Sequence record: PX092659.1
Origin: a phage
Reading direction: 5' to 3' (one strand)
Length of the DNA stretch: 64,000 nt
The position numbers and the translations under genes are program-made. Below, piece by piece: positions 39,913 through 50,325 of the stretch. Each line of letters opens with the position of its first letter. The first letter of the stretch is position 1. The notes under the pieces were generated by a model. That model was not told where the DNA came from, searched no databases, and saw only the letters and a program-made list of their open reading frames with translations.

Positions 39913-40680
39913 TTATTCAGCAGCCGCAGCTTTTGCATCCAGTTTAGCACGCTTAGCGGCACCATCATAGTCCTTAGCAACCAGACCACGACGGGACAGC
40001 ATAGATTTAACACCACGCTCAGACTTACCAGTTTTCTCAGCGATCTCAGCAACAGTCATGTTAACCAGATCCAGACCTTCTAACAGATCTTCACGAGTTT
40101 TAGCACTTGAAGTTTCCTGTACCGGCATAGCCGCAATACGACCTTCACGGAGCAGGCTCAGAGCTTTACCACGGATCTGCTTAATATTGCGACCGAAGTG
40201 AGCAGCGATAGCTTCAATAGTAGCACCAGCAACAACCTGATTAACAAAGTCAGTTTCTTCATCCGGAGTGAAGGAACGAACAGCAGCAGCTTTTTCAGTT
40301 GGTTTAACAGAAGCGGTCATTTCCAGACTCAGGATCTTACCCTGTACCTGTTTAGCACCAAACTGACCACCAGCTACAGCAGCAGCGATTTCAGCATAAG
40401 TATACTGACCAGCATGAGCGTTCAGGAAATCAACCAGTTCAGCTTCCTGCTCAGGAGTCCACGGGGATTTCTGTACTTCGTTAGCTTTCTGTACTTCGAA
40501 ACCTTCTTTACGCAGCTTAGAGCCAACAGAGCGAGCGGTAACGTCTTTGCCAGTTTCAGCAGCCAGTTCAGCAGCGATAGCCGCTACTTGTTCTTGAGAG
40601 ATTACAGCAACACCCAGAGCAGTGGCTTTTGCTTTCAGAGACTCGGTTACACCTTCTACGTTCCAGTTCAGTTTAGACAT
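39913..40680 (-). CDS. abundant early DNA-binding protein with three internal repeats (D5-like)
   Basis: 255 aa, Ala-rich, E. coli-optimal codons; three repeated helix-turn-helix-like modules (TYAEIAAAVAGGQFGAKQVQGKILSL / TIEAIAAHFGRNIKQIRGKALSL / TVAEIAEKTGKSERGVKSMLSR). Confidence 0.5.
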   Translation of the reverse strand: MSKLNWNVEGVTESLKAKATALGVAVISQEQVAAIAAELAAETGKDVTARSVGSKLRKEGFEVQKANEVQKSPWTPEQEAELVDFLNAHAGQYTYAEIAAAVAGGQFGAKQVQGKILSLEMTASVKPTEKAAAVRSFTPDEETDFVNQVVAGATIEAIAAHFGRNIKQIRGKALSLLREGRIAAMPVQETSSAKTREDLLEGLDLVNMTVAEIAEKTGKSERGVKSMLSRRGLVAKDYDGAAKRAKLDAKAAAAE

Positions 40681-45769: not shown

Positions 45770-46283
45770 ATCTCTCCGAGGGATTAAATTCACCAAACAG
45801 CTCTTTAACTCCCCTAAGGTATAGCTGATGGGCTTCTTCCGGGGTATCTCGTCTACCAAAAATATGTTGCTTTCCATCGCAGTAAGCGTAGGCCATATAC
45901 CTATTACCTCGTTTTACAACTCCAGTGAATCCGGTAGAATTAGTAGAACACTTCTTATTCTTCCCATTTTCGGAATAGGTAGCCTTACGTAAATTATCCC
46001 ACAAGTTGTTTAAACTATCGCCGTCTTTATGGTCAATAGTTTTACCCCCAGGATCTTCACCTGTCTTTATAAACCAGATTATTCTATGGGCTAAGTAAGC
46101 TGTCCGCTCCCCATTTATCGTAAACTCTAGCTGTCTCCCAGTTTTCATTTTGGAGCCCGCTACCTTTCCCTTCCTTGGGCCAGATAACCAAATTAAGTCC
46201 CCAGTACTTTCGTCATACCTAAGCTTTTCTAGGATAAATGCCATAGGAGGCATTGGTTTATGCATTTTCATTAGTTGCTCCAA
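45753..46283 (-). CDS. HNH homing endonuclease with AP2-like domain
   Basis: HNH core AHRIIWFIKTGEDPGGKTIDHKDGDSLNN; AP2-like FTGVVKRGNRYMAYAYCDGKQHIFGRRDTPEEAHQLYLRGVKELFGEF; start overlaps 3' end of origin-binding gene. Confidence 0.75.
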   Translation of the reverse strand: MEQLMKMHKPMPPMAFILEKLRYDESTGDLIWLSGPRKGKVAGSKMKTGRQLEFTINGERTAYLAHRIIWFIKTGEDPGGKTIDHKDGDSLNNLWDNLRKATYSENGKNKKCSTNSTGFTGVVKRGNRYMAYAYCDGKQHIFGRRDTPEEAHQLYLRGVKELFGEFNPSERYDSEE

Positions 46284-49044
46284 GTTCGGACAGTACTTCT
46301 TCTGCCATAGCCTTCTCTTCCTCTGTCATGAATTTGAAAGGAATTGGCATACACTCGATTTTACAATAGGTTCTGTACCAGTCTACGATATTCTCCGTGT
46401 TCATATCTTTACCAATACCCATCATACCAAGATACATTCTAGCATATTTTGGGTTAGCACTCTGACCTGTTTTAAGGAAGAAGTCCTTCTTCTTACCTTT
46501 CAGAGCCTCTATGAATGGTTTAATGGTCACATTTGAACACTTCTTAATATCTTCCCAGAACATCTCGTGCATCTTATGGAAGAATGCAGCTCGATCATTC
46601 GGTTTATCTTTGATATATTGTTCAACATGCTCAACTGTTACATCTTTAATAGACTCGAGATGATAATAGCGAACAAGAAGTAGCTTAGCTTCATATGCAT
46701 CCGCATGGCGCGGAGCACAATAATCAGGAGTTGAGTGCAGAATAGCTTTGATTCGCTCCTCTGTGTACTCTTTACCAGCACCTTCAATAGTTCCCCAGCT
46801 TTCACTGAAAATATCAATAGTTGCACCCTGATCAAGCAAGTAATAACGTAAAGTACTAGTATAGTTCCTAGATTCTAATTCCCTGCGACGTGCGTATAAT
46901 TGCTGTGCTAACTCCAGCCAACCTTCATCAATATTATATTGTTCAGAACCTGCGGAGAATCCACTCGTAGATTTATCAATAAAATAATAGATATTTTGAG
47001 CACCACGGTCGCGCCTGATTGCTTGGAAACGCATGTTTGGCGCTTGATTACTAGTTCTAGTAATAACGAATACGTTATCAAAATAGTTGAAGTCAACACC
47101 ACTCGTTACGGATGGACTACATAATAAGCAATCAATTTGTTGATCAATTAGCTCATTAGTTGTGTAATCCAGAATACGTCTAATATCTACATCAGACGTA
47201 GAGTTTGAGTGGATTTCCTTAACTAACGCACCCGTATTACGACGCAACGCCATGCCCTTCTCATTCAGTTCATCTGGCCCACAGTCAGATACTAGGATAG
47301 ATTTCTCACCCATCTCCAGGGAAGTCTGAAGTGCAACCCAAATACTAGACTCATCAGGGAACTCATAAGCATGAGCTTTTGATAGCATTTTACGGTGGTG
47401 ATTGTAAAATGCAACCGGTTTATCAAACTCAATCAAAGAACCATATGCTTCAATTGTTTCTGCACTAATATCCCCATCAGATAATATAATGATTTTTGCA
47501 GTTGCAAGAATATCCCGAAGAACCTGAATACATTCACGACGTTGTTTAACAACCGGGGCGAATAATAGGTCATTCATTACAGCGTCACATTCATCGATAA
47601 AGATTGCATCGATTTGACCAATAAAACTCTTGAACTTATGTAAAGAGTGAATAGTTGTGGACATACGGTCAATAGCGCCACGCTTAAAATTAAGCATATC
47701 TACAGACTTATCATATTGTCCTGCACTAAATTTCTTAGCATTTGAAGATACCAGTGCTCGAGTATTGGTAATTGCTAAGAAATTACCTTTAATAACTCCT
47801 GAATCTAACCAACGAACAACAGCCGTTGTTTTACCCGTGCCTAGGCTTGCTTTTACAAAAGTCATATAGCCTTCTGGTGGTACAGTATTTAATTTCAAGA
47901 AGTTGTCGGTCTCTAGTGAGTTAGTCTCTAGTTTTTTAAGTGGAATACCTTTTAAAACATCAGGTATATCACGTTTAGAATTATTCACAAAGGCTTTTAA
48001 CGCCTGCTTACGACCGTTATTAAAGTAATCTTGAATATTACGACTATTATCTTTAGTTGCAATATACTCAGATAAAGCTGGGCGGATCTCCTTCTCTAGC
48101 CAGCCAAAATCTACACCATCCTCTAGTGCTCGGTGATAGAGTTTAGGAATAATACGTAGATATACACCATCCTCAGCTTCTTCTAACTCGCTGATGGTTT
48201 CTTCTACTTTATCAGAGGCAGCTTTTTTACCCTTAATTTGGTCTAGTAAAGAGTAGAACTCTTCCTTAAACTCACCTCTAGTTGTTTCATAGTCAACTAG
48301 ATTATTAGGTAAATTTACTTTTGAGCCTTTAACAAATACCAGACGTGAAGCACCCTCCGCTTTAAACGGATCTACTATACCATCAGTGAATAAAGGATCT
48401 GCAAAGTAATGGAGCTGTACGGAAGAGTAATAAGCTAAGTCGGCAATATCAAAGCCATACTTTTGTCTACTACTTTCGTTGATAGATGTAAATAAGAATT
48501 TGATTTGACCCTGAGTTACTTTAACATTAGATTCTAGTATTAAGTGCATTCGGATACCTGGTTTTAGCCCAGCCGAAGACGATGCATGAGCGATAAACCC
48601 TGCATCAAGAGGAAACATATCCTCACTAATACTATTTAACATTCTAATAATATGTCGAGCCATGCCAACAAGATCAAACTTGTTACAACCACCTGTATCT
48701 ACAATACCATCCACGTCCATTGCAATTATATGACTTGGGTTAGATACATTAAAGTTGCCCTTCTTACGTCGCACATTATTTTTAGGTGCAAGACATCGAC
48801 CTCGTACCGCAACGATATGAGGGTCAGACGTTAAACGTCTCATAAGAGGAAGCATTTCTACTAGGGTTTGAGGATCAACTTCATCAATTACATCAAACTT
48901 GAAGGGCATTGAAGCTGGTTTACCTTCAGGATGCTTTGAGGAAAATCTTTTAGCAAAAAGATAGTCTTCTGCTTTAACTTCTCGCCAATTGCCTGTGGCT
49001 AAATCGCGATGAAATCCTGCATGACCTTGTAGGATTGAAAACAC
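46258..49044 (-). CDS. putative replication origin-binding protein / DNA helicase-like ATPase
   Basis: Walker A SLGTGKTTAVV and Walker B IFIDECDAV in central region; track ORF extends to TTG 49122 but GTG 49044 has SD AGGAG 7 nt upstream. Confidence 0.6.
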   Translation of the reverse strand: MFSILQGHAGFHRDLATGNWREVKAEDYLFAKRFSSKHPEGKPASMPFKFDVIDEVDPQTLVEMLPLMRRLTSDPHIVAVRGRCLAPKNNVRRKKGNFNVSNPSHIIAMDVDGIVDTGGCNKFDLVGMARHIIRMLNSISEDMFPLDAGFIAHASSSAGLKPGIRMHLILESNVKVTQGQIKFLFTSINESSRQKYGFDIADLAYYSSVQLHYFADPLFTDGIVDPFKAEGASRLVFVKGSKVNLPNNLVDYETTRGEFKEEFYSLLDQIKGKKAASDKVEETISELEEAEDGVYLRIIPKLYHRALEDGVDFGWLEKEIRPALSEYIATKDNSRNIQDYFNNGRKQALKAFVNNSKRDIPDVLKGIPLKKLETNSLETDNFLKLNTVPPEGYMTFVKASLGTGKTTAVVRWLDSGVIKGNFLAITNTRALVSSNAKKFSAGQYDKSVDMLNFKRGAIDRMSTTIHSLHKFKSFIGQIDAIFIDECDAVMNDLLFAPVVKQRRECIQVLRDILATAKIIILSDGDISAETIEAYGSLIEFDKPVAFYNHHRKMLSKAHAYEFPDESSIWVALQTSLEMGEKSILVSDCGPDELNEKGMALRRNTGALVKEIHSNSTSDVDIRRILDYTTNELIDQQIDCLLCSPSVTSGVDFNYFDNVFVITRTSNQAPNMRFQAIRRDRGAQNIYYFIDKSTSGFSAGSEQYNIDEGWLELAQQLYARRRELESRNYTSTLRYYLLDQGATIDIFSESWGTIEGAGKEYTEERIKAILHSTPDYCAPRHADAYEAKLLLVRYYHLESIKDVTVEHVEQYIKDKPNDRAAFFHKMHEMFWEDIKKCSNVTIKPFIEALKGKKKDFFLKTGQSANPKYARMYLGMMGIGKDMNTENIVDWYRTYCKIECMPIPFKFMTEEEKAMAEEVLSELGATNENA

Positions 49045-49643
49045 AACAATACTCCTGTGTTGGAAATGGAATAAGTTTTCTTTAGGACTATTCAGAAAGA
49101 ATAGAACAACTGTTACTGTCAATTTCTCAACAAATTAATTGCAAATACTGAAGTGGGGTGGCAACTTCCACTTTCACGCTGCGCTGCTGCCTCATTATAC
49201 CGCACAAATCCTTGAGGATGGCCGCTAAGCCAGATTTGCTCACCTAATGCTTCATATACTAGCTCATACTAGATGCAATATAACTTACAGAATCACGTCT
49301 CGGTAGTTTTTCACTCCTCCCATCTCACTTCACAACCACCTCATACTAGGTTGCTTCGAGGCCTTACCAGGGTTCCTATGGGACGCAGATCGCTAAGTAT
49401 TCTATTAACTATTTGCTTAAAAACTAACACGTAACAGTTAAAACAACCCTTAATGGGGCAGCCTAACTGTTCCGTATCGCGGATTGTAAACAAGAAAAAA
49501 CTTTTTCGTAAAGCTCTAGCAACGTACCTTATGCAGCTATTTACGGGTCATCGATTCCTCTCGCCGTAAATCTCTTGTCAGCTTCACTAAGAAAAATTAG
49601 TAAAAGATCAATTTTTACTAATGTCTCTCAATTCAATATAAAT
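49045..49643 (-). other. long promoter-proximal noncoding region (candidate structured leader, ncRNA or replication origin)
   Basis: No ORF of 60 aa or more on either strand; lies between promoter (-10 at 49644-49649) and origin-binding gene start; contains CTAGTATGAG-like decamer x3 and hairpins. Confidence 0.4.
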
Positions 49644-49672
49644 ATTATAGCAAGATTTTGAGCATCATGCAA
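49644..49672 (-). promoter_or_regulatory. T5-type early promoter
   Basis: minus strand TATAAT(49649-49644) followed by ATTTATATTGAATTGAGAGA start region; weaker -35 TTGCAT(49672-49667). Confidence 0.55.
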
Positions 49673-49704
49673 GTAGATTTTTAAAGAGAATGCTATCAGT
49701 GTCT

Positions 49705-49740
49705 TTGAGCACAGAGAAAACCGAGCCAAAATGACTCGGT
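49705..49740 (-). terminator. intrinsic terminator
   Basis: minus-strand ACCGAG-UCAUUUUGG-CUCGGU hairpin followed by UUUCUCUGUGCU; immediately precedes next promoter. Confidence 0.55.
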
Positions 49741-49748
49741 TATACGGA

Positions 49749-49943
49749 TTAATCATAAAAAAGACCACGAATAGTATTAGCAAATTTAAGTATAATAGCG
49801 CGGTTTGAGCTACTTAACTTTTTAATATCGAAAGTGGGATCAGTCAAATATCTCGCCATAAATTTTACTTGTTTAGCTGAAAGTTGACCCTTATTCCACT
49901 TTTTAATTTTACCATAACATACCCAATATTCTTTATTCATCAT
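49749..49943 (-). CDS. hypothetical small protein
   Basis: 64-aa basic ORF at end of early small-gene operon. Confidence 0.35.
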   Translation of the reverse strand: MMNKEYWVCYGKIKKWNKGQLSAKQVKFMARYLTDPTFDIKKLSSSNRAIILKFANTIRGLFYD

Positions 49944-50325
49944 TTAGTCCCGGAACATAGATCCCAACACGATTTAATTGTTCTTTAGCTTCTTTGAGAA
50001 TATCTGGAGTGTACTCCCAAATATCATCTTCCACCTGTAAAAGATGTGGCGAACAACCGTCATCAGGCACACGACATATGGCCAAACCACGTGGATGGAA
50101 CAAAGAGAAATTTAGGGCAACAATCAAGCCCATAGCAGACAATTCATTCCAATCCAATTCCCATTCCCTGGCATATCCAGACAGGAAAATGCCAATGCAT
50201 GGATCATCTATTTGCTGCTCCGGAAAAGTGAAGGAGGCTTGTCTTACCCCCAACCAACGTTGTAGCAGCTTCTCCGCACGCTTCACCAAACTAGGATCAA
50301 TCTGACGCCAGTATACTTGTTCCAT
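49933..50325 (-). CDS. hypothetical protein, paralog of 50335..50763
   Basis: 130 aa; shares PCIG...W.ELD...MGL(I/V).ALN..LF.P...W.Y(S/T)P...G..(I/V)PGL pattern with upstream neighbour. Confidence 0.45.
   Translation of the reverse strand: MEQVYWRQIDPSLVKRAEKLLQRWLGVRQASFTFPEQQIDDPCIGIFLSGYAREWELDWNELSAMGLIVALNFSLFHPRGLAICRVPDDGCSPHLLQVEDDIWEYTPDILKEAKEQLNRVGIYVPGLNDE

Follow-up and report, generated by a model that had tools for sequence, protein, structure and literature searches.

What do T5-like phages keep in the roughly 600 nucleotides (nt) that separate the promoter of their replication operon from its first gene, D2? The question arose from a 64,000-nt stretch of phage DNA (sequence record PX092659.1; hereafter the window), which comes from a T5-like phage (Demerecviridae, Markadamsvirinae). 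There, a first-pass annotation of positions 49045 to 49643, read on the minus strand, had pointed to three copies of a decamer resembling CTAGTATGAG and had offered as candidate explanations a structured regulatory leader, a small non-coding RNA or a replication origin recognised by the neighbouring protein. Our comparison of this locus with its counterparts in about 50 related phages indicates that the region very probably specifies a functional structured RNA. The reading that we favour, as probable although far from secure, is that it is the template of a large, autonomously folding RNA that forms the 5′ leader of the mRNA of D2 and the replication genes and serves as a control or processing element.

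The comparison covered phages of Escherichia and Salmonella (two main versions), Yersinia phage phiR2-01, and phages of Klebsiella, Pectobacterium, Erwinia/Pantoea, Providencia and Proteus, and a gap of 500-760 nt between promoter and D2 was present in every enterobacterial T5-like lineage fetched. Several hundred phage records share the conserved region (megablast matched 444 and blastn 528), and the 1-kilobase (kb) stretch around it is 98.9% identical to Salmonella phage EH1. By BLAST, hardly any variation is seen in the promoter, in the first 50 nt or in a block of 75 nt (49499-49426), the 309 nt at the centre (49426-49117) are swapped in T5 and many others for a 304-nt segment without BLAST similarity, and the final 70 nt before D2 are conserved again; the D2 protein is 93% identical between the window and T5 despite the exchanged core, the RNA thus diversifying much faster than the gene. 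The conserved flanks seem to act as recombination points. In all, the core exists in at least six versions that BLAST cannot align (49117-49426 of the window against L012 (T5), L024, L025, L080 and L087), and these sequence-unrelated versions share lengths, helices, architecture and distances. On the strand read from the promoter, and in 5′ to 3′ order, the predicted RNA of the window is made up of the following elements.

49586-49632, minus strand: SL1, the 5′-terminal hairpin, a few nt past the start site, with the stem UUGAGAGA; it covaries in the Klebsiella and Pectobacterium types.
49451-49477, minus strand: Ha, a nearly invariant hairpin (AUACGGAACAGUUAGGCUGCCCCAU), 95.9% paired, with double changes in 4 pairs.
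49407-49440, minus strand: 5′ strand of P1, the long AU-rich closing duplex of about 30 base pairs (bp), from duplex energies and constrained folds.
49383-49393, minus strand: 5′ strands of P2a and P2 (GCG..CUGCGU), with double changes in 7 of 9 pairs and compensatory changes among close relatives too.
49319-49382, minus strand: the P3 three-way junction, with P3 (CCCAU/AUGGG), the P3a hairpin (49371-49362) and the P3b hairpin (49354-49332), whose loop UAGUAUGAGGU contains the decamer copy at 49349-49340.
49339-49343, minus strand: 5′ strand of the probable pseudoknot, UGAGG, in the P3b loop; six complementary pairs in six types.
49302-49317, minus strand: the P4 hairpin, with a GC to AU compensatory change within the A-type.
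49291-49301, minus strand: J4/5, the conserved single-stranded junction GAGA(A/C)GUGAU, GAGAAGUGAU.
49194-49284, minus strand: the P5 domain, in which the P5 helix (49284-49275 with 49203-49194) encloses a variable arm and P6.
49274-49238, minus strand: P5a, the variable arm, carrying decamer copies 2 and 3.
49237-49206, minus strand: P6, a closing stem with the invariant GCU-UAGC-GGC hairpin (49231-49220) and a 3′ bulge.
49213-49217, minus strand: 3′ strand of the probable pseudoknot, CCUCA, in the P6 bulge; six complementary pairs in six types.
49176-49184, minus strand: 3′ strands of P2 and P2a (GCGCAG CGU), from covariation.
49151-49173, minus strand: the P7 hairpin, with the loop AAGUUGCCACC; it covaries across types.
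49107-49140, minus strand: 3′ strand of P1, from duplex energies and constrained folds.
49088-49104, minus strand: a small hairpin (CUAUUC-UUUCU-GAAUAG) right after P1, with an equivalent in every type.

From Ha (49477) to the start codon this RNA measures about 430 nt, or about 600 nt with an extra module carried by the window. P1 is extended by P1b, the multi-branch junction inside P2 bears P3, P4, J4/5 and P5, and P2 is followed on its 3′ side by P7, the 3′ strand of P1, the small hairpin and the Shine-Dalgarno (SD) sequence. Spacing is kept along with the order: the motif AUACRGAACRG lies 411-437 nt from the start codon and the domain closed by P2 measures 210-217 nt in all versions, and 170-186 nt separate the start codon from the invariant CUUAGCGG motif (the UAGC hairpin). 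Sub-modules are also shuffled, the P5a/P6 part being common to Yersinia phiR2-01 and the Klebsiella version.

The first-pass annotation had proposed covariance across T5-like genomes as a check, and covarying helices, both short- and long-range, are what RNAalifold returned for 11 diverse leaders. In a 32-pair subset of that alignment (Ha, P2a/P2, P3 and P6), 90.7% of cells are standard pairs, against 34-48% when the partners were slid by 1-3 columns as a control; both sides have changed in 21 of the 32 pairs, double changes fill 70 cells, and not one of 500 shuffles matched the observed values for pairing and double changes. The AU-rich P1, of 25-35 bp, is found in every type even though its sequences differ completely, and its mean duplex energy is -35.4 kcal/mol for cognate strands compared with -19.4 ± 4.5 kcal/mol for non-cognate ones. 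When folding was constrained by the anchored helices alone, a single topology emerged in all 11 representatives. Close relatives (more than 90% identical) add compensatory double changes of their own, 7 in the A-type and 6 in the B-type, together with many A-U to G-U transitions. Because the helices hold 52 G·U cells and 10 A·C cells, the fold can be assigned to the D2-sense strand, that is, the strand read from the promoter. The general signature of a structured RNA, helices kept by compensatory changes on one strand, is therefore present, and the idea of a structured regulatory leader is upheld in substance: the RNA is predicted to be transcribed, it is gene-sense, and it is structured, with covariation in many helices. 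The proposal of a small non-coding RNA was right as to structured RNA and wrong as to size, the element being about 430-600 nt long.

A pseudoknot between the P3b loop and the P6 bulge is probable on comparative grounds, because the complementarity recurs at the same position in six versions. The last five nt of the P3b loop are complementary to bulge nt just 5′ of the P6 closing strand in these six versions with differing sequences, the pairs being UGAGG/CCUCA, UAAGG/CCUUA, UAGAG/CUCUA, CAUGU/ACAUG, UAGG/CCUA and UGGG/CCCA. A duplex-energy test for P5 and the pseudoknot did not discriminate, its windows being too large and the strands purine- or pyrimidine-rich, and it was replaced by the positional analysis. 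In all versions a purine-rich, SD-like loop is paired with a pyrimidine-rich, anti-SD-like bulge. In the Pectobacterium phages (L025 and L059) one of the two pseudoknot strands, drawn from the P6 bulge and the P3b loop, reads CCUCCUUA, identical to the 3′ end of 16S rRNA, and the other reads UAAGGUGAU and is Shine-Dalgarno-like.

The signals that would place this RNA at the head of the D2 message, and the gene itself, are laid out as follows.

49719-49741, minus strand: intrinsic terminator ending the upstream (nucleotide-metabolism) operon, a 10-bp stem and T-run annotated at the homologous place in T5.
49644-49672, minus strand: T5-type sigma-70 promoter, with -35 TTGCAT (49672-49667), a 17-nt spacer, the TG of an extended -10 (49652-49651) and -10 TATAAT (49649-49644).
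49492-49588, minus strand: optional, self-folding module (about 97 nt) between direct repeats of TTTTTCTT, absent in most relatives including T5.
49042-49056, minus strand: SD sequence AGGAG (49056-49052) and GTG start (49044-49042), in a local hairpin predicted by minimum free energy (MFE).
46258-49044, minus strand: D2, the T5.108 homologue ('replication origin binding protein'; UL9-like SF2 helicase), first gene of the replication operon.

Transcription would be expected to start near 49637. The promoter, which the first-pass annotation had recognised by its -10 element at 49644-49649, is present, is a strong one and has equivalents in nearly all relatives, where TTGCA-N17/18-TATAAT lies about 490-620 nt 5′ of the start codon; a promoter scan based on TTGACA misses it, TTGCAT fitting at 3 of 6 positions. 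The T5 reference record annotates the terminator and the promoter at the homologous place and leaves the next 471 nt without annotation, and the AKFV33 record likewise annotates a promoter. No terminator was found between the promoter and D2 in the enterobacterial types. The minus strand holds all genes of the window from about 26 kb to about 56 kb, with D2 leading the replication cluster, and the local richness in GC that had been noticed is real, GC content rising to 0.465 at 49200-49399 against 0.30-0.39 in the flanks. In one relative, L029 (IMGVR_UViG_2706796320), the promoter and the SL1 hairpin are tandemly duplicated, which gives its leader two promoters.

The SD-supported GTG start at 49044 stands as first proposed: relatives with as little as 65% identity keep the D2 N-terminus MF.IL.GH unchanged, so the start is correctly placed. 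D2 starts, whether GUG, UUG or AUG, lie inside MFE-predicted local hairpins in most enterobacterial types examined. Some records call the start differently, EH1 at an internal ATG and beppo at an upstream start, probably as annotation artefacts. A weak match to Herpes_ori_bp (residues 394-533) is the sole Pfam match of D2, and a search of the PDB returned UL9-type proteins only, with E about 1e-5; as far as such matches go, 'origin-binding protein' is a label derived from weak UL9 homology. Experimentally, the protein of T5 proved to be a helicase of an unusual, bipolar kind, and it is a proposed replication initiator (PMC3632103). By eye, the N-terminal third of D2 contains DxD and H motifs that recall archaeo-eukaryotic primases.

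We propose that the RNA is a control and processing element acting at the RNA level at the head of the replication operon. P1, at 25-35 bp, is longer than a closing helix requires and has the size of an Escherichia coli RNase III substrate, offering in all types the nearly uninterrupted double-stranded RNA, of at least about two helical turns, that marks an RNase III site. Host RNase III would be likely to enter at this long duplex, and a cut made in it would free the compact core from the D2 mRNA. The cut mRNA would begin with a protective hairpin about 60 nt before a weak, partly sequestered GUG start, so that the output of D2 would hinge either on how the leader folds and is processed or on a factor that binds its conserved junctions. 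The core is conserved, its junctions are invariant and its distance from the start codon is constant, as would be expected of a sensor domain, and the invariant unpaired nt of J4/5, the UAGC loop, the P7 loop and Ha point to a pocket in which a protein or ligand could bind. By analogy with gp32 and gp43 of T4, D2 itself would be the obvious candidate for autoregulation. Action in cis on the expression of D2 or its operon appears to us about evenly balanced between true and false, and a processing step by RNase III is put forward tentatively, as somewhat less probable than that.

Parts of this scheme are familiar. In the lambda N leader, the T7 early mRNAs and the stalks of rRNA precursors, a duplex of at least 20 bp is cut by RNase III, structured RNA is released, and downstream translation or stability is altered. 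The T5-like leader resembles these in forming a long duplex from leader or flanking sequence and in that a hairpin would remain at the new mRNA end. It differs from them in that its cleavage is a prediction, in that it encloses a conserved, pseudoknotted domain of 210-217 nt with invariant junctions, which has no counterpart in those leaders, and in having no sequence relationship to them. As with the T4 gene 32 pseudoknot and the gene 43 operator, a structured 5′ leader precedes the message for a replication protein of a virulent coliphage, and that protein could bind its own leader. The T4 operators are shorter than 100 nt, whereas the T5-like leader has 430-600 nt and at least 8 helices, and D2 binding is a candidate interaction. 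Cobalamin, lysine and T-box aptamers share with it a closed multi-helix junction, a tertiary pairing from loop to bulge, conserved unpaired junction nt and a position upstream of a gene. In contrast to riboswitches, the 25-35 bp P1 is unlikely to switch, no expression platform competing with the core was found, there is no match to an Rfam riboswitch, and no ligand can be inferred.

Several points weigh against a cis-acting, processed leader. No transcript data were found for the region, and no alternative, switching pairing of the SD region with the core could be shown; P1, at 30 bp, speaks against a classical riboswitch, and the case for RNase III cleavage is the length of the duplex. Each pseudoknot case taken singly is weak (shuffle frequencies 0.02-0.3), and the statistical support for this pairing is moderate. 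A covariance model of domain I built from three seed types (R1) recovers those types only, even with filters off, and misses the T5, Klebsiella, Providencia, Proteus, Vibrio and Aeromonas versions, so that it is too type-specific to define the family and the cross-type alignment rests on anchors and manual reading. Finally, two distant Demerecviridae, Aeromonas phage TS3 and Vibrio phage D124, have an intrinsic terminator before the helicase gene (at about 1190-1230 and about 1400-1425, respectively), and in both the box TTTTTTGCAC(C/T)CT comes next, some 90 nt ahead of the start codon; if these regions are related to the element, the terminator would be compatible with an attenuator or with a separate RNA gene. 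No sequence similarity was seen for these long regions of the Vibrio and Aeromonas phages, and homology is not established, alignments being at most suggestive. They span 0.7-1.3 kb before the helicase gene and are unannotated in TS3 (L084) and filled with mini-ORFs in D124 (L083). In a comparison limited to the two sequences TS3 and L152, the better fold of the TS3 region was that of the sense strand.

The main rival to a leader acting in cis is a trans-acting RNA or ribonucleoprotein (RNP): the core would be a stable non-coding RNA cut from the leader at P1, and its position before D2 would reflect co-expression, not cis-regulation. Such an RNA could possibly serve as an RNP partner or cofactor of D2 or of another phage or host protein, or as a decoy against host defence. 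Its size and complexity, with a multi-junction core, a pseudoknot and invariant junction and loop nt, are closer to those of stand-alone RNAs than to known leaders, P1 resembles the processing stalks from which rRNA is released, and in the distant relatives a terminator sets the helicase gene apart from the non-coding region that precedes it. The swapping of the core as cassettes, with D2 93% identical, is moreover typical of specificity determinants or of targets in an arms race. Against this stand the absence of a terminator in any enterobacterial type, the fact that the RNA is physically the leader of D2, the strict synteny with D2 at constant distance from its start codon, the lack of a second copy elsewhere in the genome, and the fact that no partner is known. 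On balance we consider this explanation unlikely, although it deserves to be taken seriously. Of about the same low probability is the broader possibility that T5-like phages carry a previously unrecognised class of large pseudoknotted RNA that is no passive leader and serves the replication apparatus as an RNA machine or as an RNP partner. Such a machine, a core of about 215 nt in a stalk of about 30 bp, might be a cofactor or loading platform for D2, a replicon-specificity determinant swapped as a cassette, or a ribozyme.

The transcript could also be a replication primer or origin RNA, in the manner of ColE1 RNA II or the T4 R-loops, which would hybridise to the template near the D2 gene and serve as primer for the first leading strand; D2 would act at that site. 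The likeness to these systems lies in a promoter-driven, folded, non-coding RNA of about 550 nt beside replication functions and in cassettes that differ between close relatives, as they do in replicon-specific control RNAs; here a structured RNA of about 500-600 nt adjoins a presumed initiator gene at a locus about 49% along the T5 genome. T5 does have internal origins of bidirectional synthesis, according to the passage of PMC3632103 that cites Bourguignon 1976. The T5 literature consulted speaks of multiple origins, and none was found mapped to this locus. Unlike ColE1 RNA II and the T4 origins, the T5-like locus showed no antisense regulator, a simple scan of the plus strand from 48800 to 50000 giving no signal for an antisense promoter or countertranscript, and its transcript continues into a translated gene. 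No AT-rich unwinding element was found in this region, which is GC-richer than its flanks, and there is no change of GC skew; a tightly self-paired RNA closed by a 30-bp duplex would, in addition, be a poor former of R-loops. A primer role is improbable.

A signal at the level of DNA, whether a double-stranded origin with decamer iterons or a structured single-strand initiation (ssi) signal for a primase or helicase, fares worse. In its favour are the two exact copies and one degenerate copy of CTAGTATGAG, the name of the neighbouring gene product, and the capacity of single-stranded DNA to form helices and tolerate G·T pairs as well. The decamers lie where the first-pass annotation had placed them, exact at 49263-49272 and 49340-49349 and with 2 mismatches at 49253-49262, and the two exact copies are the only ones in the 64-kb window; by itself, though, such a repeat is weak, about 0.2 exact 10-mer pairs being the rough expectation per 600 nt, whereas the region as a whole is far beyond chance. 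The decamer at 49349-49340 consists of the last base of the P3b stem and the P3b loop including the pseudoknot strand, and the copies at 49272-49253 fall within the variable arm P5a. As iterons they were rejected, because they are confined to the window-like version, and no such repeats occur in those of T5, Klebsiella, Pectobacterium and Yersinia. The origin that had been suggested to be recognised through them loses its footing there, and also in the one-strand G·U pairs, in the weak UL9 similarity behind the name of a protein whose T5 homologue is a bipolar helicase, and in the lack of a GC-skew switch, the skew at the locus tracking gene orientation only. The invariant GCTTAGCGGC occurs once in the leader, where it pairs with itself, and its second exact match in the window lies elsewhere, at 39951. 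Known ssi signals are hairpins of 40-140 nt, and a pseudoknotted domain of 330 nt is unlike them; the structure, besides, begins a few nt past the transcription start and is oriented as the transcript is. A DNA-level role is, on this evidence, very improbable.

That the gap holds one or more unannotated genes for small proteins, as some GenBank records with proteins of 29-55 amino acids here and the 50- and 53-residue ORFs of the window might suggest, is scarcely credible, since among the types no ORF keeps its frame, strand or position, stop-free segments vary in strand and frame, peptide similarity appears in all six frames wherever nucleotides are conserved, the covariation is that of RNA helices, and six-frame proteomics of phiR2-01 added only g18.1 and g54.1 and nothing in the leader (PMC8624392). 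Small proteins and DNA iterons are both at odds with the comparative data. The observation that started the inquiry, some 600 nt without an ORF of 60 or more amino acids, holds for 49045-49643 (53 and 50 being the longest), and no conserved small coding gene, which the first-pass annotation had named as grounds for abandoning its proposal, appeared in the versions of related phages. PP429240, OZ195730 and other GenBank records fill the leader with 'hypothetical proteins', probably annotation artefacts.

To return to the leader RNA, its apparent novelty was examined in databases and in the literature. Rfam 15, with 4227 models that include GOLLD, ROOL, riboswitches, ribozymes, RNase P, tmRNA, 6S and group I and II introns, gave no match in the window at the gathering threshold, only chance matches in the region at E ≤ 10, and nothing relevant in 12 related loci at E ≤ 0.1; scans for tRNA and tmRNA found none. 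The best of the chance matches, a MicF-like one at 49713-49800 (minus strand; 33.7 bits against a gathering score of 79, E 0.008), overlaps the end of a 64-residue ORF and the intrinsic terminator and is most likely a mere resemblance to a terminator. The core had no BLAST match in 5,426 E. coli genomes or in PLSDB plasmids. In IMG/VR, the pattern GAGAAGTG-N56-72-GCTTAGCGGC returned known T5-like phages and chance matches in coding DNA, with no new lineage or context. No non-coding RNA, leader or mapped origin of this sort was found in the literature on T5 or the Demerecviridae. The element is a new RNA family, so far confined to T5-like phages of Enterobacterales. Its general kind, a structured leader or a non-coding RNA released from one, is familiar; no described counterpart was found for its size, its fold (at least 8 helices, a pseudoknot and a 30-bp stalk), its cassette evolution and its fixed position at the head of a replication operon. 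It is comparable to GOLLD, ROOL, OLE, HEARO and raiA as a large, multi-junction, covarying RNA with few invariant nt, phage-borne, whose function cannot be deduced from sequence; it is unlike them in lacking an Rfam match, in belonging to phages of Enterobacterales, and in lying in an mRNA leader syntenic with a helicase gene and not near tRNAs.

The surroundings of the element are mosaic as well. The 97-nt module, single-copy in the window, has a Y-shaped fold of its own between SL1 and Ha; it is nearly identical in its carriers (the window, EH1, NR01, SP3, DT571/2, phiR2-01 and ende), accompanies more than one version of the core, and has the look of a segment gained or lost through recombination at the repeat. 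A gene for an HNH endonuclease (PF13392; 45753-46283, minus strand) overlaps the end of D2, and homing-endonuclease genes flank the locus in bobsandoy and AKFV33 too, which fits a mosaic neighbourhood. Upstream, the 64-residue ORF (phrog_29527, function unknown; 49749-49943, minus strand) lies between the DUF7415 gene and the terminator and is present in the window and some relatives and missing in others, including T5. The stable hairpin reported at about 49151-49173 is the P7 of our model. In three low-GC metagenomic phages (L140, L141 and L146) a D2 homologue with the N-terminus MFSILKGH is present and no sign of the structured RNA was seen upstream of it, where the intergenic region, AT-rich and divergent, spans just 370 nt.

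T5 ranks among the classical model phages, and relatives of it are isolated widely for use in biocontrol, yet in several hundred deposited genomes this 0.5-kb stretch stands blank or is filled with spurious mini-ORFs; for annotation practice, the finding means that no ORFs should be called in this leader. Complex large RNAs supported by covariation are rare in bacteria and phages, and past cases have turned out to be ribozymes, riboswitches or RNP scaffolds. The interchangeable cassettes with one shared fold amount to a natural mutagenesis series, and the size of the RNA fits cryo-electron microscopy. An RNA placed at the entry to the replication operon, before the presumed initiator D2, may explain the level or timing of the replication functions of T5-like phages, and it might bear on the initiation of T5 replication, which is still unmapped.

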